Shown: positions 6,156-56,205 of the stretch, in pieces
How the letters are laid out: each line of letters starts with the position of its first letter
How positions within the stretch are numbered: position 1 is the stretch's first letter
DNA from: a virus
Lineage: Duplodnaviria > Caudoviricetes
Reading direction: 5' to 3' (one strand)
Length of the DNA: 59,410 bases
Virus record (IMG/VR): IMGVR_UViG_3300020021_000010
Span: 1 to 59,410 of that record
The notes under the pieces: model-generated
Seen by the model: the letters and a program-made list of their open reading frames with translations, nothing else
The model's database searches: none
What the model was told of the DNA's origin: nothing
Made by a program: the position numbers and the translations under genes

Positions 6156-6163
6156 GTGGCCCC

Positions 6164-6328
6164 CTAGGTCATCTCGTTCAGCAGAGCGACCGTGTTGTCA
6201 CGGACCGCCGAGAGCATCAGCACATATGCCGGGTCGGCGTCGTCCAATAGTCGCTCAAGGTCGATCGGGACCCCCGCGACGCAGCAGGAGGCGGCCAGTT
6301 TGGCTAGCTGGCCGCCCCGGAGTTTCCC
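6164..6328 (-). CDS. Tail assembly chaperone -1 frameshift extension (GT-like)
   Basis: Slippery heptamer G GGA AAC at 6328-6322; the -1 frame is open (KLRGGQLAK...LLNEMT*) and fills the gap to the next gene. Confidence 0.7.
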   Translation of the reverse strand, partial: GKLRGGQLAKLAASCCVAGVPIDLERLLDDADPAYVLMLSAVRDNTVALLNEMT

Positions 6329-6801
6329 ACCGTGTCCTCTGCGATACGGCTATTGGCCCGCGCCTGCAGCTGGCCCAGTTTGTTCGCCGTCTCGACGATG
6401 TCTGCCTCGCCGCCAAAGATCTCCACTACGGCCTCACGGTCGTCCTGGGCCTGCCCGCATCCGGCTTCCTCGCCGAGGTAGGTAGAAAGCTCGAGGCCAA
6501 GCGCGCGCCCGAGATCGACGGGGCTTCCCTGTGCGTCGACTTGGTCGGTCTCGCACCCCTCGCAGGAGTTCAGCAAGGCGGTGATGCCAGCGTCGATCAG
6601 CCCCTCAACCTGGTCGTCGGCCTCCTGTGCATCCAGGCTGAGGCGCAGCAGGTCCCGGTCGGACATCGTCCGGCACCGTAGGATAAGCCGCCCATTGAAA
6701 CGTGGGACTGCGACTTTCTCAACCGTGCTGGCGCGCTTCGCCTTCATGTCGCCTGTGATATGGGCCCTCAGGGACCCCAGGACCGCCTCGGTCTGCTCCA
6801 T
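6304..6801 (-). CDS. Tail assembly chaperone (G-like)
   Basis: Acidic ORF right after tail tube, GGAG RBS before ATG 6801, slippery site near its 3' end. Confidence 0.75.
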   Translation of the reverse strand: MEQTEAVLGSLRAHITGDMKAKRASTVEKVAVPRFNGRLILRCRTMSDRDLLRLSLDAQEADDQVEGLIDAGITALLNSCEGCETDQVDAQGSPVDLGRALGLELSTYLGEEAGCGQAQDDREAVVEIFGGEADIVETANKLGQLQARANSRIAEDTVGNSGAAS

Positions 6802-6827
6802 TGAGTCTCCCTCCATCGAGTGTTTGC

Positions 6828-7256
6828 CTACTGGCTGTCGCCGTCGAGGTCCGCCATCAGCGTCATGTACGCCACCTCGGATTTCTCCGCGTCATAGTTC
6901 GGCCGCGACACCGTTCCCGTGATCCCGGTGTAGGTCTCCGAGAACACCGCAGATGCCTTCGCGCTGGGTTTCACCGAATAGGTAATCGTGATGAGCGCCT
7001 GCCCTGCCGTTTCCTCCAGTTCCTTGTAAACCAGCAGGATGGGCGCGGACCACAGCTTCTTCACGGTCGCAGGACCGCGCTTGGCGATCCCACCGAGAGC
7101 CCTCTGCGGGAGCTGCCCCCCCGGCATCACCGTGAGGCCCTCTACGGTCTTCTCGGCCCCTTCTAGGACATCCCAGGATTCGTTAGGGAGGCTCATGCCA
7201 GCCACGGTTACCCCGATCGAGACTTGATCGGAGCGGAATATCTGCACTTGCGCCAT
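6828..7256 (-). CDS. Tail tube protein
   Basis: 142 aa beta-rich protein directly downstream of sheath. Confidence 0.75.
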   Translation of the reverse strand: MAQVQIFRSDQVSIGVTVAGMSLPNESWDVLEGAEKTVEGLTVMPGGQLPQRALGGIAKRGPATVKKLWSAPILLVYKELEETAGQALITITYSVKPSAKASAVFSETYTGITGTVSRPNYDAEKSEVAYMTLMADLDGDSQ

Positions 7257-7265
7257 GGCTGTCTC

Positions 7266-8702
7266 CTAAGCGATTTCGAGGTTGGCTGTGCTCGTGACGC
7301 GGACGTTGATCGTCGTGGCGATACCGTCGATCGTGACCACCATTTCTGCGTTGAGCTGCTTTGCTTTCGCCGTTTCGGGCGTGTTGATCGGCGAGCCGAC
7401 CTTGACTTCGCCAGATTCGATTGCTTTCGCTTCCTTCTGACGTTTGATGATCGCCCCGAGATCCCCCGCGAATTCAGCGATCGAATCGGCGCTGATCCTG
7501 TCGAAGAGGTAGGCCTGGCCCGCTTCTTCGGATTCCGTTTCGATCGCTATTACGGCCCGCACCGGGGGGTACTGGCACAGCAATTCGTTCTTGGATGACG
7601 GAAGGGCGGACGCTGCCCCATAGAGGCAGAGGGTTCCGTTCACTTCGGCGAAACAGTTGATCCCCGATTCTTCCAGGGAGGTCATCTGTGCTTCGCTGTA
7701 GGTATTGACGAATCCCGTGATCTCAGGTCCGAGGGGCCAGTTCACACCTGCCGGGGCCTGGTTGTTGTTACCGGTGCGGGACACCTTCGCAAGCTGCGCG
7801 GCGGCGACGACGGAGGCGGGGATGATGCGTGTCGTGCCTCCGGCTAGTCCCGGTGCGTAGCAGGCCTGCGCGAAGAAGTTGATGCGTTCTGCGACCCCGG
7901 ACGGGATCGCTCCTTTTTCGGATTTCAGGGATGCGGGGGTTGTGCCGACTTCTTCGGCGCCTTTGAGGTCCGCCTGGGCATCGCGTTTGTTTTTCAGGCC
8001 ATGTTCGGCCATCGCTACATGCACGGGTTCTTCACTGTTGCCTGGCACGATCAGTTGCCCGGGGCCGAGGCTCTTGGGTATCGATTCGATGCTGGCGATA
8101 GTCGATTTGGAGTTGACGGTCGGGTTCGTTCCGCTCGCGAGTTTTGTCGCTACGAGTTTCTTGACGAGTTCGCTTTTGCCGGACGTGTATCCGGACCCTG
8201 CCGTTATCACGACATAGGTCTGATGCGCTTCGCCCCACGCCAGTAGTTCCGCCGCCGTGGCGTATTCGCCGCTTGTGGAGAGGACTTCGCCTTCGGGGCT
8301 GAGGATGACTAGCTTGGTCGCGGTTTTCCCAGAGTTTTCGACCACTTCGACTTTTAGGCCGTTTCCGTACGTCCCCCTGTAGAGCGCCGTCACGACGAGT
8401 GTTTTGGCTGTTGAGCCTGCTTCCAGTTCCAGTTTCGCGGCGGCCGGCGTGCCTTCTCCCGAGGTGCGCTTTACGTAGGCGCGTGACCCGCCGAGAGCAA
8501 AGAACCTGTCCAGCGCGTCGAAGACTTTGACGGATTCCCCTTCACGGGGGCCGTACAATTCGATGCCCTCGCTTGGCCCCTGGACGAGCGTAACCGTTTC
8601 CGGTCCGTATGCGGCGGGGGCGACAATGAACAGCGTTCCCATCTGTAGGGAGACGCCCGCTGATTGCTGGGTCCCCCCGCTGCTGACAATAACTCCTGGC
8701 AT
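7266..8702 (-). CDS. Contractile tail sheath protein
   Basis: MPGV start, FF..GGSRAYV, A...G.YGN.L.VEV, L...GINCF motifs typical of sheaths. Confidence 0.85.
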   Translation of the reverse strand: MPGVIVSSGGTQQSAGVSLQMGTLFIVAPAAYGPETVTLVQGPSEGIELYGPREGESVKVFDALDRFFALGGSRAYVKRTSGEGTPAAAKLELEAGSTAKTLVVTALYRGTYGNGLKVEVVENSGKTATKLVILSPEGEVLSTSGEYATAAELLAWGEAHQTYVVITAGSGYTSGKSELVKKLVATKLASGTNPTVNSKSTIASIESIPKSLGPGQLIVPGNSEEPVHVAMAEHGLKNKRDAQADLKGAEEVGTTPASLKSEKGAIPSGVAERINFFAQACYAPGLAGGTTRIIPASVVAAAQLAKVSRTGNNNQAPAGVNWPLGPEITGFVNTYSEAQMTSLEESGINCFAEVNGTLCLYGAASALPSSKNELLCQYPPVRAVIAIETESEEAGQAYLFDRISADSIAEFAGDLGAIIKRQKEAKAIESGEVKVGSPINTPETAKAKQLNAEMVVTIDGIATTINVRVTSTANLEIA

Positions 8703-8712
8703 CGGGTTCTCC

Positions 8713-9360
8713 TTACTCGACGGTAACTTTGATGTCCACCGTCTCTACGGTGGGTGCTTCGTCAAACGGTTCTTCGTGCCCCTCATATCCCGGTGATTCC
8801 TGAGGGTTGGGTCCGAGTGGTCCGGCGTCCTCTTTGATTACCTGGGGAACCCAGACCTCGAACTCGGTGATGGACTGCTGGATGGCCCGGCGTTCCGGGT
8901 CGGGGAAGGTCACCTCTGGTAGGGCCGTCATCCGCAGACGCTCGGCGAGACCGCCGAGGTCCGGTTGCTGGACTAGCAGCATCGAGGCGGCGCCGTAGTG
9001 GCCTGCCATGATCCGTGCGTCGTCCTCCGCCCGTTCGGCGAATAGGCCGCCGACACCGACGCACAGGCAGCCTAGGCCGACTGCGTACGCCTGGGTGTAG
9101 CCGTACGAGCCAATCTCGGGCTGCCCTGAGGGTTTGGCCGTGACCATGACCTCGGGTACCTCGGCGCCGATCCACGACTCGAAATCTGTTCCGCCGTGGT
9201 AGCTCTGCGGGGTAGGCGGCCGTGGGATCGCCTTCCGCTCGAGTCCCGTTTTCCGCTCGCGATCAGCGAGGTATTCGGGCATCCATATCCGCAGTGTCGC
9301 GGTGACGGCATCGATTACGTCCTCGGGGCTCACCAGTGGCCCGAAAATGTCTTCGGCCAT
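8713..9360 (-). CDS. Putative tail terminator / neck protein
   Basis: Position between head-tail adaptor and sheath. Confidence 0.5.
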   Translation of the reverse strand: MAEDIFGPLVSPEDVIDAVTATLRIWMPEYLADRERKTGLERKAIPRPPTPQSYHGGTDFESWIGAEVPEVMVTAKPSGQPEIGSYGYTQAYAVGLGCLCVGVGGLFAERAEDDARIMAGHYGAASMLLVQQPDLGGLAERLRMTALPEVTFPDPERRAIQQSITEFEVWVPQVIKEDAGPLGPNPQESPGYEGHEEPFDEAPTVETVDIKVTVE

Positions 9361-27485: not shown

Positions 27486-28817
27486 CTAGTCCTTGAACGG
27501 GTCGAAGATGTCCGCGCCGGCCATAGCCACGCCGATAGGCGTGAGCGTGTGCAGGATGCGAATCGTGTCCTTATGGGCGTCAAGAACCGCGTCGAGGCGC
27601 TTGTAAGCACCTGGCGCCTCGTCTGCCGCTGCCCCGCGAAGCTCGATGTGTTTCTCCCGCATTGAGTTCTGCACGTCGGGCCAGTCGATCACTCCCGGAC
27701 GCACCTGCTCGGTGACCGTGCGTTTGAGTAGCTTCCCGTCCGGGTGATCGGGGCACGGGATGCGTTCTCCGCCCGCGAGCTGCTTGTCGCGCGGCGCGCG
27801 GTAGGAGCAGTCGCGGTCGTTGCACTCCCAGACGTTGAAGCGTCGCGTCTTACCGGCGGCTTGGGTTCTGCTCATCACCCGCCCGGCGCCGTGAACGGTG
27901 CTGTAGAGCAAGCTCTCGCCCGCGGGTGACTCGATGCCTTCGAGGATCACCGAGGGCTCGCCCATCGTCGCGCCGACGAAACCCTGCTGTCCGGGGAATG
28001 CCGGTGTGCAGCCCTTGCGGATCACCCACACGTCCTCCCCCTGGTGCATCTCTTTCCAGGCGAAGTTGTGGTGGTTGTGGACCTCCTCTAGCGCGTCGGC
28101 TCCAAGGATGTCCAGCACCTTTTGGACGACTAGGTCGCGTCCGGCATAGGCGTACTCTCCTGCGAGCGTCATCGCCTCGATATACGCCTGTCCTAGCTCG
28201 CTGTCGGTGCGGAACAGGACGGGCGGACTGTCCATCTCGCCATCGGCGGCGTGCTCGCCGAACTGCTTGCCCTGCGCGAGTGCGAGGAAGCCGCTGGCGG
28301 TCTTGTGGCCGAACCCGCGTGAACCGAAGTGCACGCCGACCCATAGCCAGCCGTCCTCGTCCCCGAACAGGTCGACGTAGTGGTTGCCGGAGCCGACCGT
28401 GCCGAGCTGGTTGCTCGCGGTCTGCGTGAGTTTGCGTTGCGGGGCAAACTCGGCGTGCGCGATCGAATCCAGCACCGAATGGTCGACCGGCTCGTCGTTG
28501 ACACGCCCCACCCCGAAGCTGATGCGCGCCACGATCTCGTCCATAGTCTTCGCGACCGCCCCGTGGAGCAGCCCGTCATAGCGGAGGTCGTCGACCCGGA
28601 TGTTCGTCCGGACCGCCTTGTTACCGCAGCCGATGTCATAGCCCACACCAGACGGACTGATCTGGCCCCGATACGCCACCACCCCACCGATCGGCTGGCT
28701 ATAGCCGACATGTCCATCGGCGCAGATCGCGGCGCCTAGCGCGTCGCCCTCGTCCGCACAGCGCACGAGCTGCTCAATCGCGCGCTGGTCTACATCTCCC
28801 CGAGTCGTGACGTTCAT
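27486..28817 (-). CDS. rtcB: RtcB-family RNA ligase with zinc-ribbon insertion
   Basis: DGHVGY, GYDIGCG, GSGNHY, HFGSRG, HNHHN, RKG, HGAGR, DEAPGAYK motifs all intact. Confidence 0.95.
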   Translation of the reverse strand: MNVTTRGDVDQRAIEQLVRCADEGDALGAAICADGHVGYSQPIGGVVAYRGQISPSGVGYDIGCGNKAVRTNIRVDDLRYDGLLHGAVAKTMDEIVARISFGVGRVNDEPVDHSVLDSIAHAEFAPQRKLTQTASNQLGTVGSGNHYVDLFGDEDGWLWVGVHFGSRGFGHKTASGFLALAQGKQFGEHAADGEMDSPPVLFRTDSELGQAYIEAMTLAGEYAYAGRDLVVQKVLDILGADALEEVHNHHNFAWKEMHQGEDVWVIRKGCTPAFPGQQGFVGATMGEPSVILEGIESPAGESLLYSTVHGAGRVMSRTQAAGKTRRFNVWECNDRDCSYRAPRDKQLAGGERIPCPDHPDGKLLKRTVTEQVRPGVIDWPDVQNSMREKHIELRGAAADEAPGAYKRLDAVLDAHKDTIRILHTLTPIGVAMAGADIFDPFKD

Positions 28818-29299
28818 GCTGCCTCCTTATCGTCGGTGACGTCTTCGAGTGTCCTGATTGCCGTCTCGTAGCGCCGTTTTAGGGACTGCCAGCGGCGAGC
28901 ACTAGCTAAGCCCTCCTCGCTGATATTGCATTCGAGTGGGATGCGAAAGAGGTTGTCTTTCAGGTCTGCGAGCTTGACCTCACGGGCGAGATCCCCCGCG
29001 CCGAAGATGTCTTCGCAGCGAGCGATACGGCCGATGTAATCGGCGTAGGTGCAATGTCCGCGGGTGAGAATGCCTAGGGCGTGGGCGTCGCCCACGGGCA
29101 GACCAAGGTGTGTAGCCACAGTCATCCAATCATCCGATCCGTCCTCGCAGACGTCGTGTAGTGCCGCGACGACCTTCGCCTCGTCGCTCACCGCTTCCAC
29201 CACTCTGAGGATGTGGAGGAGATACGGCTGGCCCTGTTTGTCGACCGTCGCCGCGTGTGCGCGGATCGCAATCTGGAGGGCTGCTGCCAGATCGCTCAT
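28814..29299 (-). CDS. HD-domain phosphohydrolase (SpoT/MESH1-like)
   Basis: A..AH....DK.G.PY..H..RV, ALHDV.ED, VKLADL.DN. Confidence 0.85.
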   Translation of the reverse strand: MSDLAAALQIAIRAHAATVDKQGQPYLLHILRVVEAVSDEAKVVAALHDVCEDGSDDWMTVATHLGLPVGDAHALGILTRGHCTYADYIGRIARCEDIFGAGDLAREVKLADLKDNLFRIPLECNISEEGLASARRWQSLKRRYETAIRTLEDVTDDKEAA

Positions 29300-40424: not shown

Positions 40425-42285
40425 CCTGCACCCCCGAAGACACCGGAACCTCGATGAACTTCCGCTCCGCGAGCTGGCCTGCGACATGCGCGTCGAACGC
40501 CCCACGACCCTCGCGGTCTACACCGTCGACGACTAGCTGCAGCGCGGCGATCAACGCCAGGGCCTCCCCCGTGTGGAACCACTCGTACGCTTCCATCGCG
40601 CCGGTTTTGAGGCAGAACTGCACGGGGCCGAACATGTTCACGGCGTGCCTGGGAGTGGGCATTACGCGGAACTCGCACGCGCGCGTCTTGACGACTGTGG
40701 TTAGATTCTCATCCATCACGAACCTCGCTTCGTGGTCAAGGGCGAGACGGCTCCAACCGTGCTCGCCCGTTTTTGTGAGTAATCCGGGGAGAGACCTACT
40801 GCCCCGCACCATCCGAAAGCGCTCGACAGTGGCCGGCTCGACCGCACTGCCATCTCCTCCGCGTCGAACTCCGCGTCGTCCCTTTCCCGCTGCCATGCTT
40901 TCCAGATCCGGGGCCAGCGCGAATACGTACGGACACCACGGTGGGGTTTATGCGGCACCGGGTGACGCTTGCGACCGTGGCGGGCCTTGTGCGAAATCTT
41001 CATGCCACGCTCCTGTACCGCTCGCGCAGCTTGTCACTGACAACCTCGTCCGCGTATGGGCAGGGCTTCTCGAAAGTGCAAGGCGGGAAGCCCTTCGGGC
41101 AAGGGTCTTCACACGGGCACGCTGCGCGCTCGTCGTCCCATCCGTCCCGGCGGGCTTCATCCAAGGAGCGGGGAGCCGTCATCGCGTGGCCTCGACCCGC
41201 AAGCAGTGGGCACATACGCGCCCCTCCTGCTCTACGAGTGCGCGGTGCTCAGCCGCCAAGTGGACGCGCGGGAGACCTCCACCATCCGCCCCGCAGAGCA
41301 CCTCCTGTCTGCGGGGCGCTGGACGCAAGATGTGGTACTTGCGCCGTCGACCGAACACACCGAAGCGAATCAGGTCGGCGGTCATGACAACCGTCCGTTC
41401 TCGCGGAGGAAGGCTTCGATCTTGGCGCTGGGCAGGTCGTAGCCAAGCGCGGTGATCTTCTCCAGCAGGTCAAGGACCGGCTCCGCCTCGATGACCTTTG
41501 CCCCGGCTAGGTATTCACGGCACGCATCCCAGCCCGCCTCGAAACGATCGCCGGTAAATGCGCCGGCATGTTCATCGCGATTGCACTGGTAAGCCGCCAC
41601 CTCCATTGCTTTGCGCTCGTGTCCGCCCCGGGTCATCTTGGGCTCCTCACATAGGAACGGCCCTCACAAGACGAAGCGGCGTATTTCTCCTCCAGTGGGT
41701 GGGCCTGTTGTTCGTCGCCGAGCTTGGCGGCTTCACACAAGGCCAGGGCGAGCAGCCCCACGGTAATAAAGGGCAGGAGTGCGCAGAAGATCAGAGCGGC
41801 GAGGATCACGACAGCCCCTCGTGCTTGCAATACCCCGGCACGCTCCCCAACCCCGCCTTACGTAGATCCCCCAACGACACGCAGACAGATACACATACGC
41901 TCTGCTCGTCTACGAGGTCACTGTCTCCTATGCCGTCACGTTGGGCGGCGACACGCTTGAGGATCTCGTCGAGGATTCGACCCTTCGCGGCCGTCGTGTC
42001 CGGTTTGACGTAGAAGACGCCGGTTTGGTCGCGGGTCGTCATGGGCTAAGCCGCCTTCCCTCTGGGCTCGCCAACAACGACGGACACACCGGCTCGCTCC
42101 AGCCGCGTGACCAGGCTCACCGAGGGGTCGTATGCCTTCGCTTGAAGCGTCAGCGGGAGGTGCTCGATGTGCCGCTCGCAGAGGTACGCCCACAGGCCCG
42201 AGTGGCCGGCGCCCTGCGCGCTGACCGACGTGCGCGGGGCGATACGAGACGCGGGAGATCCGCAGAGATGACAGGTCTTCGCCAT
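40417..42285 (-). other. Run of very small hypothetical early genes
   Basis: Tightly coupled 60-100 aa ORFs (40417-40716, 40716-41003, 41000-41181, 41382-41636, 41633-41830, 41806-42042, 42046-42285). Confidence 0.45.
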
Positions 42286-42539
42286 TAGGCGGCTTCCTTC
42301 CGTACCGGAGTCGCCTTGGTCTCGTGCGCCTCGGGCCATAGCTCGACGCTTGCGCAGCCGACTACCGCTGCGATCTCCTCACGACGCTCCGGGAGGGGCA
42401 CGTACTCCCCCCTCGTCCAAGCGCCGACCTGCCGACGGTCGGCGCCAAGAGCTCGCGCCAGGGCGGACTGGCTCAGGCCGGCACGCTCAAGGGCTTTACG
42501 GAGCGGGGTGTGGACTTCGCTTGCGAGGTACGGGGGCAC
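42285..42539 (-). CDS. Cro-like XRE HTH regulator
   Basis: LRKAL.RAGLSQ..LARALG.....V..W..G...P; AAGGAG RBS; first gene of the early operon. Confidence 0.85.
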   Translation of the reverse strand: MPPYLASEVHTPLRKALERAGLSQSALARALGADRRQVGAWTRGEYVPLPERREEIAAVVGCASVELWPEAHETKATPVRKEAA

Positions 42540-42588
42540 TGTGGGCTCCTTGCGGTTAGCTTGGAATCCACTCGACCGCTTCTACTTC

Positions 42589-43590
42589 CTATCGAGTGAA
42601 CACGGAGAACCGTATCACACCCTTCCCGCCCACGTCAAGAGTGCTGGTGCGAGACGTGCGCGCGTCTCTCGCATGGGCGCGCATCTGCCCCTCGAACCGC
42701 GCCCTTCGCGAAGCAACTGGCTCCCCGTAGCGCAGCCCCCGCACGCTCCCCGCGAGTTCCTCAAGATCGGGCCGGTCCACGTACACGGAAGCGGTCGTCT
42801 GCACACTCGCGTGACCCATCAGGGCCTGTGCCGCCCGCAGACCGGCGTGCCTGGCCACGTGATCACCGAAGGCATGGCGAAGTAGATGAGGGTGGACACG
42901 CGTGGCGATACCTGCACGCTCGGCGACGCCCCGGACGACGCGTGCGAGGGCGGTGTGGCTGATCTGGCATGTTCGTGGCCGTTGGATCGGGCTGCTGGTC
43001 TTGTACGTCGCGACGACGTGATGATCAGGGCGGATGGTCGCGCGGATCTCCTCGACGACGGGGGCGAGTTCGGGTAGCACGGGGACCCACCGCTCGTGTT
43101 TGCCCTTCGCGATATCCGCGCTGAACCACACGAACCCCGGCCGCTGGAAGTGGCGTCCTTGGAGCGCGGCGAGTTCGGCTACCCGTGCCCCGGTGCAGAC
43201 ACCGAGCAGGATCATCCACCGCTCCCGCTGGGTCTCGCACGCCGCGATCATCGCCTCGACCTCCCTGCGTGTCAGACGGATCGTCGTCTGCTTGCGCGTC
43301 TTCGTTCGCGCGACCTGCCGCGCCGGGTTATCCACCCGGTGGCCCTCCGTCAGCATCCAGTCGTAGAAGCTCACCAGCACCGAATGCTCGTGCGCGCGCG
43401 TGTTCGGGTGCTCCCATCGTGCGAGCGTCCGCTTCACGTCCTCCCGCACGGCTCCCAACGCGCCGCAGGGCGTGTCCTGGGCGTGGAGTCCGAGCACGCG
43501 CCGGCATCCGCGGACCGTGTTCGGGCTGTTGATCCTCCCGGCCTGCCGCTGGTCGCGCAGATACTCCTCGATCGCATCCTCGAACCGCAT
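42589..43590 (-). CDS. Tyrosine recombinase (XerC/D-like architecture)
   Basis: Catalytic R (TGARVAEL), K (AKGK), HLLRH, MGH, Y; SAM-like N-term; start MRFEDAI. Confidence 0.92.
   Translation of the reverse strand: MRFEDAIEEYLRDQRQAGRINSPNTVRGCRRVLGLHAQDTPCGALGAVREDVKRTLARWEHPNTRAHEHSVLVSFYDWMLTEGHRVDNPARQVARTKTRKQTTIRLTRREVEAMIAACETQRERWMILLGVCTGARVAELAALQGRHFQRPGFVWFSADIAKGKHERWVPVLPELAPVVEEIRATIRPDHHVVATYKTSSPIQRPRTCQISHTALARVVRGVAERAGIATRVHPHLLRHAFGDHVARHAGLRAAQALMGHASVQTTASVYVDRPDLEELAGSVRGLRYGEPVASRRARFEGQMRAHARDARTSRTSTLDVGGKGVIRFSVFTR
42609..42638 (-). promoter_or_regulatory. Putative sigma70-type early promoter
   Basis: TTGACG-18 nt-TACGGT with extended TG, upstream of the cro-like gene, inside the 3' end of the recombinase. 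Confidence 0.6.
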
Positions 43591-43671
43591 TGCGTTGTCC
43601 CTTCCATGGGGGTCGCCTCGCGCGGTATCGTCGGACCCGCATCGAGTGCCTTTTATCCGTCTCGATGTCAC

Positions 43672-43724
43672 GCCCCCGGCTGTTAGAGCAGCGCGGGGGC
43701 ACTTTCTGGCGCGGCACCGTATCA
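43672..43724 (-). promoter_or_regulatory. Extended -10 (TGATACGGT) plus conserved leader hairpin upstream of the recombinase
   Basis: AAGTGCCCCCGCGC-N10-GCCGGGGGC; same arms at 52745-52775. Confidence 0.55.
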
Positions 43725-43956
43725 GGTCGACTCGTTGAGTCCTCTCCAAGCACTAAGACGCGACCCTATCCGCGTTCGGGACGCTTCGCAATAGGCGGAA
43801 CGTCCCGTACTCTCGGCTTAGATACGCTCGCACATGCCGTACGGCCCCGGAGCCCCGCGACACTGACCCCCAGCGGTCGCGGGGCTCCCCAAAACGTCGA
43901 GCAGCCCGAAGGGTTCGCACCGGTATGCTCGACGGGCGCGCCCTCGGGCGTAGCAC

Positions 43957-44028
43957 TGGGGGGTCGTCTAACGGCAAGACACCTGACTTTCCATCATGGA
44001 GATCTCGGTTCGAATCCGAGCCCCCCAG
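43957..44028 (+). tRNA. Atypical tRNA, anticodon UUC (Glu-decoding), U1-A72/G73 acceptor, C37
   Basis: TGGGGGG/CCCCCCA acceptor, GTCT/AGAC D-stem, CCTGA-CTTTCCA-TCATG anticodon arm, CTCGG-TTCGAAT-CCGAG T-arm; no encoded CCA. Confidence 0.85.
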
Positions 44029-44068
44029 CTCTAAAGCACGGCGACCTATCAGTCGATAGACTGGTCAG

Positions 44069-44088
44069 TGGAAAGTCAGGTGTCTTGC
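44069..44088. repeat. Perfect 20-bp inverted copy of tRNA segment 43974-43993
   Basis: tggaaagtcaggtgtcttgc is the exact reverse complement of gcaagacacctgactttcca. Confidence 0.95.
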
Positions 44089-44147
44089 GGGACCCTCGGG
44101 TCTCGTTTAGGCGAATCGAGTGCTGATGGTGCGTTCCAATGCACTTG

Positions 44148-44180
44148 CGAGGGGTCCGTTTCGGCGGGCCCCTCGTCTTT
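44148..44180 (+). terminator. Intrinsic terminator for the tRNA transcript
   Basis: cgaggggtccgt-ttcg-gcgggcccctcg followed by tcttt. Confidence 0.65.
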
Positions 44181-44399
44181 AAGCGCCGCTCCGCTCCGAC
44201 CCCTTAACGCAGAGAAGCGCCCCACGTCCGGGGAGACGTGAGGCGCTTCATGGTCTGCTGTTCTCGGCCCGGGAGGAGAGGGAGGGGCCAAGCTTGGGTT
44301 AGTCGTGGAACGGGTCCAGCAAGCACCGCCAGCAGCGGTTGAGCAGCGCGTAGTACACGCGGCTGCGATACAAGACCCGATAGAGCAGGTAGCTCATAG

Positions 44400-44497
44400 T
44401 GCGCCCGGTGGGATTCGAACCCACGACCTCCGGCTTGAAAGACCGGTGCTACTTCCCACACCCCGAAGGTTGCGGTTGACCACTGAGCTACGGGCGC
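44400..44497 (-). tRNA. Atypical 98-nt tRNA, anticodon UUC (Glu), with hairpin insertion in the D-loop
   Basis: GCGCCCG/CGGGCGC-A acceptor, CCGGT-CTTTCAA-GCCGG anticodon arm, GTGGG-TTCGAAT-CCCAC T-arm; extra ~25 nt after AGTGG. Confidence 0.8.
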
Positions 44498-44512
44498 TTG
44501 TTTGCCTGGCGC

Positions 44513-44590
44513 CTATGCGGCGCCCGGATGTTCAAGGATTGCCGCGGCGATACACACCACGGCGAATGCCACCCCTATCACGAGCCACAT
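44513..44590 (-). CDS. 25-aa hydrophobic peptide
   Basis: AAGGAG RBS; MWLVIGVAFAVVCIAAAILEHPGAA*. Confidence 0.5.
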   Translation of the reverse strand: MWLVIGVAFAVVCIAAAILEHPGAA

Positions 44591-44612
44591 GGGCTCTCCT
44601 TTCGTCGTGCTG

Positions 44613-44739
44613 CTACCGGAGCTCTCGAGCGACGCCCCACGCTTCGGTGGGGAACGACATCGGCGAGAAGCCGAGTGCCTCATCGCCGGGACCGGTTACG
44701 TCGATGCTCCTCCCGGTCGATTCGGCAGGTCCAAAATCG
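44613..44739 (-). pseudogene. 3' fragment of RlpA-like (DPBB) gene split by the transposon
   Basis: Joins in frame to the 5' fragment after removing the element and one TSD: ...CDFGPAESTGRSIDVTG...ELR*. Confidence 0.75.
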
Positions 44740-44801
44740 GGTAGTGCATCAGTTTGATTTTCCGCTGCAAATCGGGCGGCTCTCGGCTACCTTCCGAGGC
44801 G

Positions 44802-45020
44802 ATGCAAGCCGACGAGACGCAACGCCAGGTTGTCCGCCTGGTGCTCGATCGTGAGCGCACGCTGGACGGCCTTGAGCGGCTGCTCGGCTTGGGCGCTGTA
44901 GCTGCGGTCAAGGTGCTCGCCGCCGATGGCGTCGTCATCCGGCATGGCGAGCGGCTGTGGGCCTCCCCAGGCACGTCACGTCTCGACGCGCTGGGTCTGG
45001 TCGTCGGCCAGGTCAAGTGA
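44802..45020 (+). CDS. Small winged-helix-like cargo protein
   Basis: MQADETQRQV...AV..L.ADGVV.R.G..L; TACCTT 8 nt upstream. Confidence 0.5.
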   Translation: MQADETQRQVVRLVLDRERTLDGLERLLGLGAVAAVKVLAADGVVIRHGERLWASPGTSRLDALGLVVGQVK

Positions 45021-45172
45021 GCACGCCCACAGAGCACGACGCCGCCCGGTCGGGGCGCAGGGCGCTAGACACAGCCCTTGACGCATCGGCGGCTGCGTCT
45101 ACCATAGGATCCATCGCGGAGCGTCCTTAGTCCGCCCTAAGGGAGGCGCGCCATCATGGCGATGAACAGATC

Positions 45173-45454
45173 ATGACCGACCACGAGCCCGAGAGCGACA
45201 GCCCACCACTCGTCTACGTGAACTGGTTCCGGTCGATGTCGTCGCCCTACGACCTGACACTGGATTTGGGATATCGCTCAGCCGCAGCGCCCCCTCGACC
45301 GTCGACTCGCCTCGTGCTCTCGTGGGAGTACGCACTGTCCCTACGCGAGACTCTCGACGCGCTGGTCAAAGAATACGAGGAGGACAGCGGCGAAGAGATC
45401 CGCAAGCTAGGCGGAGTTCAGTTGGGTCCGGCGCAGTTCCCAGCGGACAGATAG
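45173..45454 (+). CDS. DUF3467-like protein
   Basis: VY.N.F....SPYDL.LD.G...R.V.S...A..L...L...V..YE...G.I; TTGACG-16-TACCAT at 45078-45105. Confidence 0.65.
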   Translation: MTDHEPESDSPPLVYVNWFRSMSSPYDLTLDLGYRSAAAPPRPSTRLVLSWEYALSLRETLDALVKEYEEDSGEEIRKLGGVQLGPAQFPADR

Positions 45455-45462
45455 GAGATCGA

Positions 45463-45702
45463 ATGGCCGTCAAGGAAGCCATACCGCTTGAGCTCAAGAC
45501 CCGTGACTCGTCTGAGACGATAGGCGCCCTGTTTGGATGGAAGCGAACCGCAGAGGTCATCGAAGAGATGATGGATGTGGTGTGGGTCGAATCGGCAATA
45601 CATGATGAGCCGGGCTGGGCATTGGAGGACATTCTGACGCCTGAGGTCTTGGCCGAGTTCCACCGCGCCTCTGAGCAACTGCTCACCCGTCGCCCTGAAT
45701 AG
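45463..45702 (+). CDS. Small acidic protein, putative antitoxin
   Basis: AGGAG RBS; directly upstream of the RelE-like gene. Confidence 0.45.
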   Translation: MAVKEAIPLELKTRDSSETIGALFGWKRTAEVIEEMMDVVWVESAIHDEPGWALEDILTPEVLAEFHRASEQLLTRRPE

Positions 45703-46035
45703 GTGTTCTCGCTCTCGGAGGAGAGCGAGAAGGATCTCTCGCGGTTCTGCGAGATGCTGAGCCGATCTCAGGCCGAACTCCTCAAACGCCAGGTCGAGCA
45801 GGTTTGCACCGACCCAGGCGGTAGACGTGATCCGACCCATCGCCTAACGCGGCCCTTCCATCCGACCGGCAAACTGTCCTTCCTACCAAAAGGGCAGAAG
45901 GCGTTCGAGTTCGTGGCGAACCACTGCCGCGGCATATTCCTGGTCGACAACGAGGCGCGCGTGCTGACTTTCATCCCCGTCAAAGGAAGGCGCTTCCTCT
46001 CCATGACCGAGTGCCCATGGCACAAGGGCAAGTAG
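45703..46035 (+). CDS. Putative RelE/ParE-like toxin
   Basis: F.LSEE.EKDL...L...V...C.DP...R.IF.VD.E..VL size and pattern. Confidence 0.45.
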   Translation: MFSLSEESEKDLSRFCEMLSRSQAELLKRQVEQVCTDPGGRRDPTHRLTRPFHPTGKLSFLPKGQKAFEFVANHCRGIFLVDNEARVLTFIPVKGRRFLSMTECPWHKGK

Positions 46036-46059
46036 CTGGTTCTCGCTACTATGCAAGCG

Positions 46060-46299
46060 ATGCCTGACCGCTCACGCAAGCGCCCTCGCGACCCGAGCCA
46101 GCTCGGGAAGCTGATCGTAGACCTCGCTACCGGCGAGGCCGAGGACGCCCCTACCGACGAGAGCAAGGACCCAGCAGCGGTCGCACTGGGGCGCAAAGGC
46201 GGCTTGAAGGGCGGGAAGGCCCGCGCGGCCAAGATGACGGCTAAGGAGCGCAGTGAGAGTGCTCGACGCGCGGCTTCTGCTCGCTGGACGAAAAGCTAG
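46060..46299 (+). CDS. Small basic IS-associated protein (KRPRD..QL.K.IVD.ATG / GG.KGG.ARA family)
   Basis: Sequence motif; TACTAT 7 nt before ATG (leaderless). Confidence 0.8.
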   Translation: MPDRSRKRPRDPSQLGKLIVDLATGEAEDAPTDESKDPAAVALGRKGGLKGGKARAAKMTAKERSESARRAASARWTKS

Positions 46300-47390
46300 G
46301 TCGTTACTAGTCTGAGCGGTGGATGCGCTGATGGGATCTTTGTCGGCGTGCCATTCCCCTCGACTGGAAGCATCGCTAGCCCAAACACCAAAGCATCTAG
46401 ATCTGGCTGATAGATATTCAAGGCAGAGGCGATCTCTGTCTTTGTGACGCCCTCTCGTCTCAATGCGGTGAATACTTGGTTAAGTATTTGGGATGTCTCA
46501 CGCTGCATAGGCTGAGGCTCATTAGTTCGGTAGCCGAGTTGAGAGATCTCGACGTAGAGCATTCGGTATTGCCACGGCGTCAGCCACTTAAGCTCAGACA
46601 AGCGGTGAGTAAGGGCTGCGACAGACACCTTCCATCGCCGCTTAGCTTTGATGAGATCGTGCAAAGTCGGCACTCGCGGGGTCGATGCGAGCAGACTTTC
46701 CGCCGGCATTAGCAACGCTGCTGCGAAGCGGTTCGCCTCTTGCTCCGGTTGATTGCCCTGCGGAACCTCATGGTGCCAGTGCATCACGAGATGCCCTAGC
46801 TCGTGCGCAGCGTCGAACCTACTGTGCTCTGCTGACTTCTTGGTGTTTAGAAAGACGAACGGCTGGGTTGATTGCCACAGCGAGAAGGCATCGACCTCTC
46901 GTGCGTCTTGGGCGAGCGAAAACACACGTACTCCGTGTGCCTCCAAGAGGTGGATGACATTGGGCAGTGGCTTTTCGCCCAGCTTCCATTCGGCTCGCAC
47001 AATCTGAGCGGCTGTCTCCGCATCAAGTCCGGGACCAAGCCGTGGTACGTCTTGCGGTGGAAGGCGAAAGCGCTCTGAGATCCAATCATGGAGGGCCAGG
47101 GCGAGGTCCCCGGCGGCGCGTGCAGTGTGGCGCTGAGACGCCGTCATCTTCGCGAGCGATCGAAAACTGACCGCGTCATCCTCGATGCGATCAAGGTCCG
47201 CAGCATGAAAGAAGCTGACCGGAAATTGGAGCACGTCTGCGAGCCGCGCAACGGTTAGCTCGCTCGGGACGGTTTCACCCGACTCGAAGCCAGTCACGGC
47301 GCGCGTCGAGACGCCAACAAGTTCAGCAATGCGCTTCTTGTTTAGTCCGCGCCTCTGACGCGCCAGAGTCAATCGTGATGGGGTGAACAC
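46296..47390 (-). CDS. XRE-HTH + ImmA/IrrE (M78) metallopeptidase fusion
   Basis: N-term HTH; RFDAAHELGH, EANRFAAALLMP. Confidence 0.92.
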   Translation of the reverse strand: MFTPSRLTLARQRRGLNKKRIAELVGVSTRAVTGFESGETVPSELTVARLADVLQFPVSFFHAADLDRIEDDAVSFRSLAKMTASQRHTARAAGDLALALHDWISERFRLPPQDVPRLGPGLDAETAAQIVRAEWKLGEKPLPNVIHLLEAHGVRVFSLAQDAREVDAFSLWQSTQPFVFLNTKKSAEHSRFDAAHELGHLVMHWHHEVPQGNQPEQEANRFAAALLMPAESLLASTPRVPTLHDLIKAKRRWKVSVAALTHRLSELKWLTPWQYRMLYVEISQLGYRTNEPQPMQRETSQILNQVFTALRREGVTKTEIASALNIYQPDLDALVFGLAMLPVEGNGTPTKIPSAHPPLRLVTT

Positions 47391-47392
47391 GC

Positions 47393-48064
47393 CTAGATCC
47401 GTTCGACGGGCACATATACGCCTGCATCCCCATCATCATCATCATCATCATCGTTCTTCCCGCTGGGAATCGATTCAATCTCAATTGGATCGAAGATGAT
47501 CCGGTCGTACCAAGACACGACACGCCCCTGCTCGTCTTGCCCTTTGGGGCGTGACAGCTCGTAGCGAATCTCCTCCTGGGTGGTGGTGATGAGCACGATC
47601 CAGAGCGTTTGCGCCGAGATCGTGGGCTTCTGATCTTGGACGACCTTTGGAGCCGGCCAGAGCGTTAGCTGCTCATCGAGTTTGACGTTTGTCTCGACCG
47701 CGAGCGTCGTCTCTGTGCCCTTTTTGTGCTTCGTCCGCGGTTCTGCTTCGCTTTCTATCCCGGTGTTCTCATCGCCGGTAGCGACCGTAATCGCGATCTT
47801 TGCATCGGGGCTGATGATGCGTGAGTAGTTGTGCGCGTCCGTGGGCGTCCAGTCCTGGGCGACCGCAAGCATCCTCAACGCACGATGGGTCTGCGCCCAT
47901 TGCACGGTTCCGGGGTAGCTCGGCGGATCGAATGACGTGCAACTGGAGCGTGCTACGAAGCCCCTGAGCACTGCCGTCTTGATCGTCTCTTCTGAAACGC
48001 CTACGCGGTGGAGCTGGGTGACGCGCTCGTGCGGTTGGTGGAAGCTGCGAGCAGGCTCAGCCAT
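47393..48064 (-). CDS. Partner of the HTH-peptidase, putative toxin
   Basis: Co-oriented 2 nt upstream; GD..TG....P.T...KG..T, R.ELS.P, W..RI; acidic poly-Asp tail. Confidence 0.55.
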   Translation of the reverse strand: MAEPARSFHQPHERVTQLHRVGVSEETIKTAVLRGFVARSSCTSFDPPSYPGTVQWAQTHRALRMLAVAQDWTPTDAHNYSRIISPDAKIAITVATGDENTGIESEAEPRTKHKKGTETTLAVETNVKLDEQLTLWPAPKVVQDQKPTISAQTLWIVLITTTQEEIRYELSRPKGQDEQGRVVSWYDRIIFDPIEIESIPSGKNDDDDDDDGDAGVYVPVERI

Positions 48065-48071
48065 CAGGGAA

Positions 48072-48105
48072 GGAACCTCCAGTTAGGGACGAGGTTCCTA
48101 TTATG
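48072..48105 (-). promoter_or_regulatory. Putative -10 (CATAAT) and inverted repeat/operator for the toxin-peptidase operon
   Basis: ggaacctc (48072-48079) ... gaggttcc (48091-48098) next to attatg (48100-48105). Confidence 0.45.
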
Positions 48106-48179
48106 CTATCACAGTGCGAGCGGAAAACAGGAAGTACGAAACTGATCTTTCTGTCCGACCGCTCACGCATAATGTCAAC

Positions 48180-49016
48180 ATGAACCGACTGAGCATCGAG
48201 CGGCGCACACAGATCATCGCAATGCTCACGGAGGGGAACAGCATGAGGGCGACGGCCCGCATGGCTGGGTGCTCGTTCAACACCGTCTCAAAGCTGCTGC
48301 TGGACGTGGGCGCGGCCTGCACCGAGTACCAAGACCGCACACTGCGCGACCTTCACTGCACGACGATGCAATGCGATGAGATATGGAGCTTCGTCGGCTC
48401 GAAGGCCAAGAACGTGCCCGACGACCGCAAGGACGAGTTCGGAGTCGGGGATGTCTGGTGCTGGGTGGCGATCGACGCCGACTCAAAGCTCGTGCCGTCG
48501 TGGCTGCTGGGGGAACGGAAGACCGCCGACTGCATCGCGTTCCTGGACGATCTACGCAACCGGCTCCGCTACCGCATCCAGCTCTCCACAGACGCGCACG
48601 CGAGCTACAAGGGCGCCGTGGGGCTCGTGTTCGCCAGCGACGTGGATTGGGCGCAGGTCATCAAGGAATACAAGACCACGACCGTCGCGCCGGGTCGCTA
48701 CAGCCCACCAGCCTGCACGGGCGTCCGCGTCAAGCCGCAGCTCGGCGACCCGGATCTCGCCAAGGTGAGCACCAGCTATATCGAGCGGCAGAACCTCACC
48801 ATGAGGATGAACATGCGCCGGTACACGCGGCTAACAAACGCGTTCTCCAAGAAACTAGAGAGCCACGCCGCAGCGGTCGCGCTGCACTTCATGCACTACA
48901 ACTTCGCCCGTCCGCACAAGACGCTCGCCAACCCTTACCCGCGCACTCCCGCGATGGCCGCAGGGATCGCAGATCACATCTGGACGCCCGTTGAGATCGC
49001 CGAACTCTCAAACTGA
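48180..49016 (+). CDS. IS1-family DDE transposase (single ORF)
   Basis: N-term HTH, QCDEIWSFV, LSTD, IERQNLTMR...RRYTRLTNAFSKK, YNF.RPH; stop lies within the right IR. Confidence 0.9.
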   Translation: MNRLSIERRTQIIAMLTEGNSMRATARMAGCSFNTVSKLLLDVGAACTEYQDRTLRDLHCTTMQCDEIWSFVGSKAKNVPDDRKDEFGVGDVWCWVAIDADSKLVPSWLLGERKTADCIAFLDDLRNRLRYRIQLSTDAHASYKGAVGLVFASDVDWAQVIKEYKTTTVAPGRYSPPACTGVRVKPQLGDPDLAKVSTSYIERQNLTMRMNMRRYTRLTNAFSKKLESHAAAVALHFMHYNFARPHKTLANPYPRTPAMAAGIADHIWTPVEIAELSN

Positions 49017-49025
49017 TGCACTACC

Positions 49026-49361
49026 CAAAATCGCAGTGCAGGAGCCGGGCGTGATGCCCGTCGACCGTGACCTCGAACCACCGGCCGAGGGTCGAGTCAT
49101 CCCGAATGGCGATGCAGGGCCGGTCGGTGTTCCCGCCGTCGGCCGTCTCGCCTTCGGAGTCGCCGGTCAGCGCGCCGAACGTGGAGACGCGACCTTCGAC
49201 CACATACCCCGTGTAGGGGTTGTGCTTCAGCCAGAGCTGGTAGGCGTGATCGTCGCAACGGCGGGTCCTGCACCCGGGCGCGTGCGCCTGGGCTGAAACA
49301 GACGACGCCAGTAGCGCCGCCACGGTGAGCGTGAGAGGTAGTAGGCGTAGGCGGATGCCAT
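49026..49361 (-). pseudogene. 5' fragment of secreted RlpA-like (DPBB) gene
   Basis: Signal-peptide-like RLRLLPLTLTVAALLASSVSAQA, then STF...TADG; truncated by the IR; the RBS-linked ATG at 49361 is out of frame by 1 nt. Confidence 0.7.
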
Positions 49362-55058: not shown

Positions 55059-55343
55059 ATGTCGGATGTCGATGGGGAGATCGGGAAAGCAGCACCAGAC
55101 ATGCCGGCACTGCGCATGGCGCTTGAGCGTGTACTGCCAGCATGTCCGGCCTGCGGTGAGAGGAACTGGTCGCTGCCTGAGGGGACCAATTGGGTCGCTG
55201 GACTTTCTGACGCTGCCGGTGACGTAGACCTCGCGATGGGCTTTGAGGTGGTCGCGGCAATCTGCGAATCCTGCGGATATGTTTCGCTACACCACGCCGG
55301 GAAACTGCTTACTGGTGCCAACCCTGCATCCGATGGCACATGA
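55059..55343 (+). CDS. Zinc-ribbon protein (moron)
   Basis: CPACG...W...CESCGY; TATGCT 7 nt before ATG. Confidence 0.7.
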   Translation: MSDVDGEIGKAAPDMPALRMALERVLPACPACGERNWSLPEGTNWVAGLSDAAGDVDLAMGFEVVAAICESCGYVSLHHAGKLLTGANPASDGT

Positions 55344-55732
55344 CCGCCGCTGAGCCACCGGGACCCGATTCCTCGAAGCATTGGTACCAGCGAGCGTCAT
55401 CGCGCATCCTCATCGTTCTGGTACTCGCCGTGCTGGTCGTGGCCTGGCGTGCGGGCACCTTTGACCACGCCCTCGTCAACGTCGGCCTAAACGCAAAGCC
55501 CTGCGCTCGCAACGGGTTCGGTGCCACGTTCTGTGGCCAGGAACTAGCCGAAGCCCAGGAACGCCAAGCGCAGTCCGCCAAAGAAAGCGAAGCCTCAGTC
55601 GTAAAGGGCGAAGAAGAGGGCGCAAGGATCAAGCGCGAAGGCGAAGAAACGGATGCAAAGCTCCAACGCGAAAGCGAAGAAGCTCAGCGGCAAATCGGCG
55701 AGCCCGAAACGCCAGCGGAAGTCTCAGGATGA
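55340..55732 (+). CDS. Single-TM protein with acidic coiled tail (moron)
   Basis: ILIVLVLAVLVVAW TM; C.RNGFGATFCG; ATGA-coupled. Confidence 0.65.
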   Translation: MTAAEPPGPDSSKHWYQRASSRILIVLVLAVLVVAWRAGTFDHALVNVGLNAKPCARNGFGATFCGQELAEAQERQAQSAKESEASVVKGEEEGARIKREGEETDAKLQRESEEAQRQIGEPETPAEVSG

Positions 55733-55768
55733 GGCGGCTCGGAACGTGGCACCGAACCCGTTGCGAGC
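55505..55768. repeat. Perfect 27-bp inverted repeat (55505-55531 / 55742-55768), 210-bp spacer
   Basis: gctcgcaacgggttcggtgccacgttc vs gaacgtggcaccgaacccgttgcgagc. Confidence 0.95.
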
Positions 55769-56205
55769 TCGCGCTTGCCGCGACGGCCGATGCCCGTCCG
55801 AGGGCAGTCTTCTGCGGCCAAGAACGCGTCGAACGTAGACGGACCTCCAGCGAAAGCGAGGAAGCTCGCTACGGTCGCATCTTCATCACGATCACAACAG
55901 GGGCCATGAGCGCCATCTACCGCGAGAGCCCTCGCAACTGGACGTCTCGACGAGAGGCCACCTGTGAGCTGGCTGACCTAGTCGCAGGCGAGGCCGTGAG
56001 CTATCAGCTCGACGACATCAACACCTTCAGCCCCGGGTTTGTTGGGATGGGGGCAAAATGGTACGTCGGGCGTTATCACTGCATATCCGAAGCGGCACCA
56101 GAGCCGCCGGGTTTCGACCGCGGCGAAGTCGAGACCTGCTCACACAGGGGCCACTACGCCAACAGTGTCAGATTCTGGAGCCTGGAAACCGGCGAAACCC
56201 TTTAG
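55729..56205 (+). CDS. Hypothetical moron protein with scrambled N-terminus
   Basis: ATGA-coupled; Cys-containing C-terminal part; 5' end built from pieces of the upstream gene. Confidence 0.45.
   Translation: MRRLGTWHRTRCELALAATADARPRAVFCGQERVERRRTSSESEEARYGRIFITITTGAMSAIYRESPRNWTSRREATCELADLVAGEAVSYQLDDINTFSPGFVGMGAKWYVGRYHCISEAAPEPPGFDRGEVETCSHRGHYANSVRFWSLETGETL

Follow-up and report, generated by a model that had tools for sequence, protein, structure and literature searches.

A hybrid tRNA followed by a conserved antisense copy of its own D and anticodon arms in a phage and in Solirubrobacterales

The window analyzed here is the complete virus record IMGVR_UViG_3300020021_000010 (Duplodnaviria; Caudoviricetes), 59,410 nucleotides (nt) in length. 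It carries a tRNA gene whose trailer contains a perfect antisense copy of the tRNA's own D and anticodon arm, upstream of a hairpin that resembles a terminator. Homologous tRNA-trailer-hairpin units are present in bacteria of the order Solirubrobacterales, where both the tRNA cloverleaf and the pairing between arm and trailer are maintained by compensatory changes. The module is real, conserved and selected at the RNA level, since the arm-trailer helix includes G-U pairs, its parts keep a uniform orientation in one apparent transcription unit with the hairpin, and its contexts have no recombinase in common. We consider it reasonably probable that the trailer is an RNA-level lock, which would be transcribed together with the tRNA and would hide the D and anticodon arm until it is removed.

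A tRNA gene is followed by an antisense copy of its own arm

The tRNA gene (43957-44029, plus strand) was called both by ARAGORN and by the Rfam tRNA model, and its RF00005 score of 52.2 bits, against a gathering score of 29, places it within the family. The two programs set its 3′ boundary at 44028 or 44029. It has a glutamine-type body, the anticodon UUC and no encoded CCA, and is referred to below as the hybrid tRNA. A repeat search and a k-mer scan identified positions 44069 to 44088 (plus strand) as the exact reverse complement of positions 43974 to 43993 (plus strand), with 100% complementarity over 20 nt and 75 nt between the two copies. The target arm consists of the end of the D loop, the 3′ strand of the D stem, nucleotide 26, the 5′ strand of the anticodon stem and the whole anticodon loop. 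An earlier sequence-only reading of this DNA had described an exact 20-nt antisense copy of this arm, including C37, upstream of a terminator-like hairpin; the coordinates and the extent of the arm were both confirmed. The edges of the 20-mer are sharp, and its flanks are without homology. Only two perfect inverted repeats of at least 14 nt with a spacer of at most 300 nt exist in the window, one of 27 nt and this one of 20 nt, and the longest such repeat in 30 first-order Markov shuffles was 15 nt. The 20-nt complementarity is far beyond chance.

The antisense element is a conservation island within the trailer. The proximal trailer, or spacer (44030-44068, plus strand), is poorly conserved apart from its start, which holds the motif CTAAAGCA at 44031-44038, common to the first three copies in the alignment; a local hairpin lies at about 44044-44066. 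The distal trailer (44089-44147, plus strand) contains hairpins at 44088-44105 and 44128-44145 and the 3′ half (44120-44124) of an AGCAC/GUGCU closing stem. When the phage unit was compared with its homologue in the bacterial genome G403, identity was 18/20 in the antisense element, as against 20/40 in the spacer and 10/59 in the distal trailer.

The tRNA-trailer unit is closed by the terminator-like hairpin (44148-44180, plus strand), which has a GC-rich stem of 11 base pairs (bp), a UUUCGG loop and a UCUUU tail. A simple terminator scan did not call it, as it has 4 T where 5 were required. In the host-clade genome G284, a hairpin that follows immediately on a gene end matches it with 97% identity over 33 nt, and for this reason the phage hairpin is very likely a terminator of the host clade. 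In the three copies read closely, no terminator stands between the tRNA and the antisense element, and an analogous hairpin follows the latter.

The complementarity and the cloverleaf both covary in bacterial homologues

A search pattern combining the anticodon loop, the T loop and the complement of the anticodon loop matched 2 of 401 Solirubrobacterales genomes, with 0 matches for a reversed control. Both matches (G403 and G217) are homologous tRNA-trailer-hairpin units, with Rfam tRNA scores of 53.8 and 57.2 bits, respectively. A covariance model of the T arm and the long-range helix (R1), built from three copies, was then used to search 151 genomes of the G403 genus and gave matches in 11 genomes at 84.9 to 166.3 bits, with the next match at 46 bits. 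The family sample is thus 12 copies, one from the phage and 11 from bacteria, all of the latter from one Solirubrobacterales genus. Genomes flagged as unpublished (G265, G062, G180 and G755) enter denominators and background matches only.

In the three-copy comparison, all 60 cells of the 20-pair helix were standard pairs; two pairs had changed on both sides, and two had changed on one side to give G-U. Compensatory double changes were found at 13 of the 20 helix pairs in the 12-copy alignment, where 94.5% of the helix cells were paired, nine of them as G-U, and the unpaired cells lay at the helix ends. The pair opposite anticodon base 34 was U-A in 10 copies, C-G in 1 and G-C in 1. None of 500 shuffles reached any of five covariation measures, and sliding the helix out of register left 31 to 45% of cells paired. 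Arm-trailer duplexes computed without any alignment ranged from -28 to -43 kcal/mol in 12/12 copies and were unmatched by 200 shuffled trailers per copy; the narrowest case was G636, at -28.0 kcal/mol against -27.6 kcal/mol for the best shuffle. Co-variation of the trailer with the anticodon arm among homologous loci, which the sequence-only reading had put forward as a check, was therefore found, with complementarity kept in all 12 copies.

The cloverleaf shows compensatory changes of its own. In linear numbering, these affect pair 5-67 of the acceptor stem, pair 13-21 of the D stem and pairs of the T stem. Nucleotide 21 covaries with the trailer as well as with its partner in the D stem. Because the cloverleaf stems and the arm-trailer helix both covary, two mutually exclusive folds are conserved, as in a switch.

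Other routes to relatives gave no further copies. Loci found through the integrase gene next to the phage module lacked the tRNA-trailer module in IMG/VR (3 distant loci), in metagenome contigs (59 loci) and in genome contigs (80 loci). The closest phage contig (L007, integrase 69%) keeps the phage's second tRNA gene, described below, and has an unrelated 386-nt stretch in place of the module. Exact and degenerate DNA patterns recovered no homologue from IMG/VR, where 90 matches to a 15-mer were all due to chance. Among 53 phage UUC tRNAs with a similar D arm, none had a downstream antisense of at least 11 nt, and one had a 10-nt match upstream. A BLAST search with the region against 301 genomes of the order, with 2 candidates scored per genome, missed the family except for a 79% tRNA match in G217.

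The precursor is predicted to prefer a locked fold

The locked phage precursor was computed at -77.8 kcal/mol, compared with -23.5 or -27.5 kcal/mol for the cloverleaf plus -35.7 kcal/mol for the trailer; the locked form is thus favored by roughly 15 to 19 kcal/mol in these calculations. The 20-nt duplex of the phage copy accounts for about -37 kcal/mol. The arm-trailer lock is also present in the minimum free energy (MFE) fold computed for the phage precursor and for each of two homologues.

In the mechanism that we propose, the tRNA would be transcribed with a trailer of about 120 to 150 nt that ends at the hairpin resembling an intrinsic terminator. Twenty nucleotides of this trailer would pair with the 3′ part of the D arm, nucleotide 26, the 5′ strand of the anticodon stem and the entire anticodon loop. 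Given the strength of the duplex and the imperfect anticodon stem of the three closely read copies, the precursor would prefer the locked fold, with its D arm and anticodon hidden. The hidden parts would be those needed by glutamyl-tRNA synthetase, the amidotransferase and the ribosome, and the acceptor/T minihelix would be left free for end processing. Invasion by the antisense could start on the 7-nt loop and would be eased by the flaws on the 3′ side of the anticodon stem. Once the trailer was removed or had decayed, the cloverleaf would be free, so that the trailer would serve as a built-in safety catch or timer. We infer co-transcription, processing, the unlocking trigger, the charging identity and any toxicity as the steps of this scheme. 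A cis switch masking the anticodon until processing, one of the options raised in the sequence-only reading, is supported as far as sequence analysis reaches.

Several points weigh against a lock of this kind. Its basis is DNA sequence and computed folds, and a promoter scan found no promoter for the phage tRNA unit. A perfect duplex of 20 bp might just as well be cut by RNase III, in which case the tRNA would be destroyed and not reversibly locked. A suspected second helix, between tRNA nucleotides 8 to 15 and the distal trailer, was no better than shuffles. The sequence-only reading had also supposed that the antisense is presented like a guide, between flanking hairpins and within the AGCAC/GUGCU stem. 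These elements are present in the trailer-alone MFE fold, but they are not conserved, and the fold is only modestly nonrandom (z = -2.2 against shuffles, 9/300 of which were as good). The 12 sequences are related, with the bacterial ones from a single genus, and the compensatory cells may derive from fewer events. Finally, the 12-copy alignment was fitted to the R1 structure and so is biased toward it, a bias that the alignment-free duplexes and the slid controls mitigate.

The tRNA combines acidic anticodons with a glutamine-type body

The body of the phage tRNA is marked by U1-A72, G73 and a tRNA-Gln-like D arm. In each of five host-clade genomes its best match was tRNA-Gln(UUG), at 73 to 76% identity. 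These host tRNAs share the U1-A72 pair and the D arm, differ in the T stem by compensatory changes and have G73 in 4/5 cases. The closest copy among 301 sampled genomes of the order was 81% identical, and, as judged from this divergence, the hybrid tRNA is therefore no recent capture or attP copy of a host gene.

The tRNA does not conform to tRNA-Gln, tRNA-Glu or a canonical elongator. A tRNA-Gln would have the anticodon UUG or CUG, and 12/12 copies carry UUC, CUC or GUC; ARAGORN assigned UUC to 9 copies, an 8-nt loop containing UUC to 1, CUC to 1 and GUC to 1. A tRNA-Glu would have G1-C72 and a D arm with an extra base, whereas the UUC anticodon here sits on a Gln-like body, and the body of the host tRNA-Glu(CUC) likewise differs from it. 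A canonical elongator would have a purine at position 37 and a regular 5-bp anticodon stem, whereas the phage copy has C37, in the anticodon loop CUUUCCA, and one extra, bulged or mismatched U in the 3′ strand of the anticodon stem. Position 37 is mostly C across the copies, with A or G in a few. The stem flaw takes the form of a bulged U in the phage, U-U in G403 and G-U in G217. The G635 copy (L351, 1501-1636, minus strand) has an extra U in its anticodon loop, which is 8 nt long and was given a four-base anticodon by ARAGORN, and its antisense keeps a 7-nt complement; it is possibly a frameshifting or inactive variant. No T-box match appeared in an Rfam search of positions 42000 to 46000 at E values up to 1.

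According to passages in PMC2811023, bacterial GatCAB recognizes substrates through U1-A72 and a D loop lacking the extra base of tRNA-Glu, and the anticodon plays no part in the selection. In the family, U1-A72 is present in 12/12 copies, and the D loop is Gln-like but 1 nt longer in some. In four host-clade genomes, GlnRS was above the cut-off in 0/4 and GatB in 4/4. Given the acidic anticodons, the U1-A72 body and the presence of GatB without GlnRS, the tRNA is predicted to be charged with Glu (Asp for the GUC copy) and then amidated, which would place Gln at Glu codons and Asn at Asp codons across the proteome, with harmful consequences.

On this prediction, the module might be an RNA-only toxin-antitoxin pair or defense device, in which a miscoding tRNA is kept shut by its own trailer. 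We offer this extension tentatively, as less likely than not to be correct. The tRNA would be freed by a trigger, for example decay of the trailer, attack by a nuclease or disappearance of the neighboring toxin-antitoxin transcript. As cargo of Solirubrobacterales islands and of a temperate phage, the module would serve addiction, abortive infection or host takeover. The lock within the unit, its neighboring toxin-antitoxin genes and its presence on a temperate phage would all be explained if the tRNA were harmful. Alternatively, given its pyrimidine 37 and weak anticodon stem, the tRNA may decode poorly or not at all.

Bacterial copies often lie behind toxin genes

A toxin gene immediately precedes 7 of the 11 bacterial copies; it is of the RES type in 6 cases and of the Fic/Doc type in 1. 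The six start about 20 to 30 nt after the RES-domain toxin gene, which is itself preceded by a gene for an Xre-type antitoxin. The remaining 4/11 follow unrelated or unknown genes. RES homologues were found in 15 of 151 genomes of the order, and 0/15 of those loci hold a tRNA, so the toxin does not need the module. In genome G001 (L332, G001:C3, reverse strand, about 2140-2170), an Xre-RES pair 92.7% identical to that of G403 is followed by no more than about the first 10 nt of the hybrid tRNA, after which the sequence is unrelated; the module was apparently lost here in a recent deletion or rearrangement. From the tRNA-free RES-Xre loci and the G001 remnant, we conclude that the module is separable cargo, often at the 3′ end of toxin-antitoxin operons and, in the phage, beside an integrase gene.

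The phage encodes no RES or Xre homologue. The integrase, which is context and no part of the module, is not shared by the bacterial copies, and no recombinase was seen among the annotated genes of the bacterial 3-kb loci. Neither does RtcB adjoin the module in these annotated 3-kb loci; the rest of those genomes was not searched for RtcB.

Alternative explanations

Other explanations were weighed against the same data. The functional product might be the trailer, as a small RNA, with the tRNA-shaped part serving as a processing handle (an RNase P or RNase Z cut site), a sponge or a partner; the small RNA, and not the tRNA, would then be under the control of the pairing. Some tRNA-linked spacer RNAs, such as 3′ETS-leuZ, have regulatory roles, and the antisense is both the best-conserved part of the trailer and largely unpaired in the trailer-alone fold. 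However, its only conserved complement is the adjacent tRNA, whose changes it tracks, and the limitation of the anticodons to UUC, CUC and GUC (12/12), together with the covariation of the cloverleaf, suggests that the tRNA is more than a handle. We regard a small-RNA product as rather unlikely. A mobile or integration device, in which integrative elements, such as the phage integrase or island cargo, would use a folded DNA or recombination site made up of the tRNA look-alike and the partial inverted copy of it, appears unlikely as well. A tyrosine integrase gene is found about 370 nt from the phage copy, the bacterial contexts vary (a tRNA-Pro gene, a subthreshold match to an IS3-type frameshift element, an IS1595 transposase), and the G001 toxin-antitoxin pair remains closely similar to that of G403 despite the near-complete loss of the tRNA. 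Yet no direct repeats, terminal inverted repeats or target-site duplication surround the phage module, related integrases have a tRNA-Cys on their other side, and the annotated bacterial loci lack a recombinase. The G-U cells would be mismatches in DNA, and the cloverleaf covariation argues for an RNA product. An attL/attR scar was rejected: no direct repeat of the tRNA region of at least 12 nt exists anywhere in the window, and the copy is inverted and lies 75 nt away.

Two further options came from the sequence-only reading, and neither fared well. One held that the trailer is a splint or shield for tRNA halves under attack by anticodon nucleases, with repair by the phage RtcB. The phage does encode RtcB and two UUC tRNAs, and phage tRNAs can counter tRNA-targeting defenses, according to portions of PMC10264068 and PMC11555353. 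The helix, however, covers the 5′ side and ends at position 38, so that after cleavage in the loop no more than a few pairs would retain the 3′ half; RtcB does not adjoin the annotated bacterial modules; and a paired anticodon is unable to decode, so that shielding would equal inactivation. This function is very unlikely. The other option treats the arms as inverted DNA sites at which an invertase or integrase flips the 75-bp spacer and turns the tRNA off. A perfect inverted repeat does adjoin the phage recombinase gene, but all 12/12 copies have the spacer in the same orientation, a spacer of 73 to 75 bp is very short for recombinase-mediated inversion, and the helix contains G-U cells at loci without an annotated recombinase. 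The contigs of two DNA runs from the probable source sample showed no joint, difference or inversion, a weak point, as contigs drop rare variants. An inverton is not supported on these grounds and is, if anything, even less probable than a splint. The same holds, more strongly still, for a neutral and functionless scar of template switching during replication. Such a scar was suggested by the module-free integrase relatives, by the blanks of the pattern searches, by the sharp edges of the copy and by a second perfect inverted repeat, of 27 nt, in coding sequence of the same genome, and template switching is described in parts of PMC8794818 as creating and maintaining RNA hairpins. It was largely overturned by the covarying homologues, since 11 further genomes have compensatory changes and G-U pairs in the helix while the trailer flanks have diverged to 17 to 50% identity. 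Template switching may explain the origin of the first copy, not its retention.

Phage and host context of the module

The large terminase of the phage is about 39% identical to those of Rhodococcus, Arthrobacter and Gordonia phages. The closest relatives of its integrase, at 62 to 76% identity, are found in Solirubrobacterales genomes, and on that basis the phage host probably belongs to this order. The tyrosine integrase gene (42589-43590, minus strand; Pfam PF00589, 1e-21) encodes 333 amino acids in its called form and is divergent from the tRNA unit. Downstream of it there is no tRNA-Cys or other host tRNA fragment that would mark attP. Just upstream of its start, at 43657-43725, a block of 40 to 65 nt is 75 to 95% conserved before related integrases at many metagenome and genome loci and probably serves this family of integrases as a promoter or leader element.

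By ARAGORN and Rfam, two convergent tRNA genes, both with the anticodon UUC, lie between the tyrosine integrase gene and a block resembling an insertion sequence (IS). The second of them (44400-44497, minus strand; Rfam score, 63.2 bits) is outside the antisense module. It has a hairpin of about 27 nt with a UUCG-type loop within its D loop, the stem of which covaries by eye, and a body unlike that of tRNA-Glu. Full-length homologues at 76 to 87% identity were present in 4/5 of the host-clade genomes first tested, in at least 37 of the genomes listed from the sample of 301, in L007 among the phage contigs and in 4 contigs of IMG/VR. Another phage contig, L169 (IMGVR_UViG_3300050821_006825), has an array of at least 14 tRNA genes at 5800-9000 that includes a copy of the long-D-loop UUC tRNA. 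A pattern search of 5 host genomes found no tRNA-Glu(UUC) with a canonical body, so the second tRNA may be the GAA reader of the clade.

The phage RtcB gene (27486-29299, minus strand; PF01139, 5.4e-63) comes directly after a gene for a weakly matching HD-domain protein, an arrangement compatible with an RNA repair module and with conflict over tRNAs. On the other side of the tRNA genes, the sequence-only reading had placed an IS1-family element with toxin-antitoxin-like cargo at 44732-49033. Of this proposal, Pfam upheld an HTH-M78 peptidase (46296-47390) and a transposase-like open reading frame (ORF; 48114-49016), and only these two parts were confirmed. The 27-nt inverted repeat (55505-55531 and 55742-55768, spacer of 210 nt) sits within adjacent ORFs of unknown function, 55340-55732 and 55729-56205. 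Recent template switching could have produced it, or it could form a long-range stem in RNA around the junction of the two genes.

Comparison with known systems

Mistranslating tRNAs, both natural and engineered, such as a tRNA-Ser with a proline anticodon (PMC6827378), cause proteome-wide substitution, which is toxic and needs to be throttled. In them, as would be the case for the hybrid tRNA, the body sets the amino acid and the anticodon sets the codon. They rely on synthetases that ignore the anticodon, whereas the route predicted for the hybrid tRNA is charging with Glu or Asp followed by amidation. Allo-tRNAs also have an anticodon mismatched to the body and are often found near toxin-antitoxin and transposon-related genes, and some prove toxic or inactive on expression (Mukai et al. 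2017, PMC5389517, in part). The module resembles them in its identity mismatch and its toxin-antitoxin neighborhood. Membership was rejected on geometry: allo-tRNAs have 8/4 or 9/3 acceptor/T stems and a long variable arm, as given in sections of PMC5389517, and the hybrid tRNA has a 7-bp acceptor, a 5-bp T stem and a variable loop of 4 to 5 nt. The words "antisense" and "complementary" are absent from the main text of that paper. Phage tRNAs that escape host defenses (PMC10264068, PMC11555353) likewise combine a nonstandard anticodon loop with a genome that has RNA repair genes; as described in portions of these two papers, they are ordinary isoacceptors with loop changes, and no self-complementary trailer is mentioned there.

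In searches of Rfam and of freely accessible papers without their supplements, no account of a tRNA with a conserved self-antisense trailer came up, and the sequence-only reading had likewise known of no precedent for this layout. If the lock operates as proposed, the activity of a tRNA would be gated by a built-in antisense, with both folds under selection. The family has its own regularities: its anticodons are only those for acidic amino acids, on a body with the putative amidotransferase marks, the hosts make Gln-tRNA by the indirect route, and placement behind toxin genes is frequent, with one copy on a phage. These regularities make testable the idea that deliberately miscoding tRNAs serve as bacterial or phage weapons or addiction modules, and how such tRNAs are kept safe. 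The family would also offer a compact natural design for switchable tRNAs, and metagenome loci with an odd tRNA and a hairpin-rich trailer should not be dismissed as pseudogenes or integration scars.

T-box elements act in trans on free tRNA, from an mRNA leader and through a 3-nt specifier. They share with the module an RNA element that reads a tRNA anticodon by pairing, which here would extend over 20 nt, act in cis and include the D arm. In hok-type mRNAs of type I toxin-antitoxin systems, a 3′-terminal segment pairs with an upstream functional element, and the RNA is inert until its 3′ end is processed. The likeness to the module lies in a 3′ segment of the same transcript that would lock an upstream element, and in carriage on mobile DNA in both cases. 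The difference is that hok locks an mRNA and has a separate antisense, Sok, whereas here the locked element would be a tRNA, with no toxin ORF and no second antisense gene seen. Of these systems, hok-type fold-back inhibition is the one that the module would appear to work most like.

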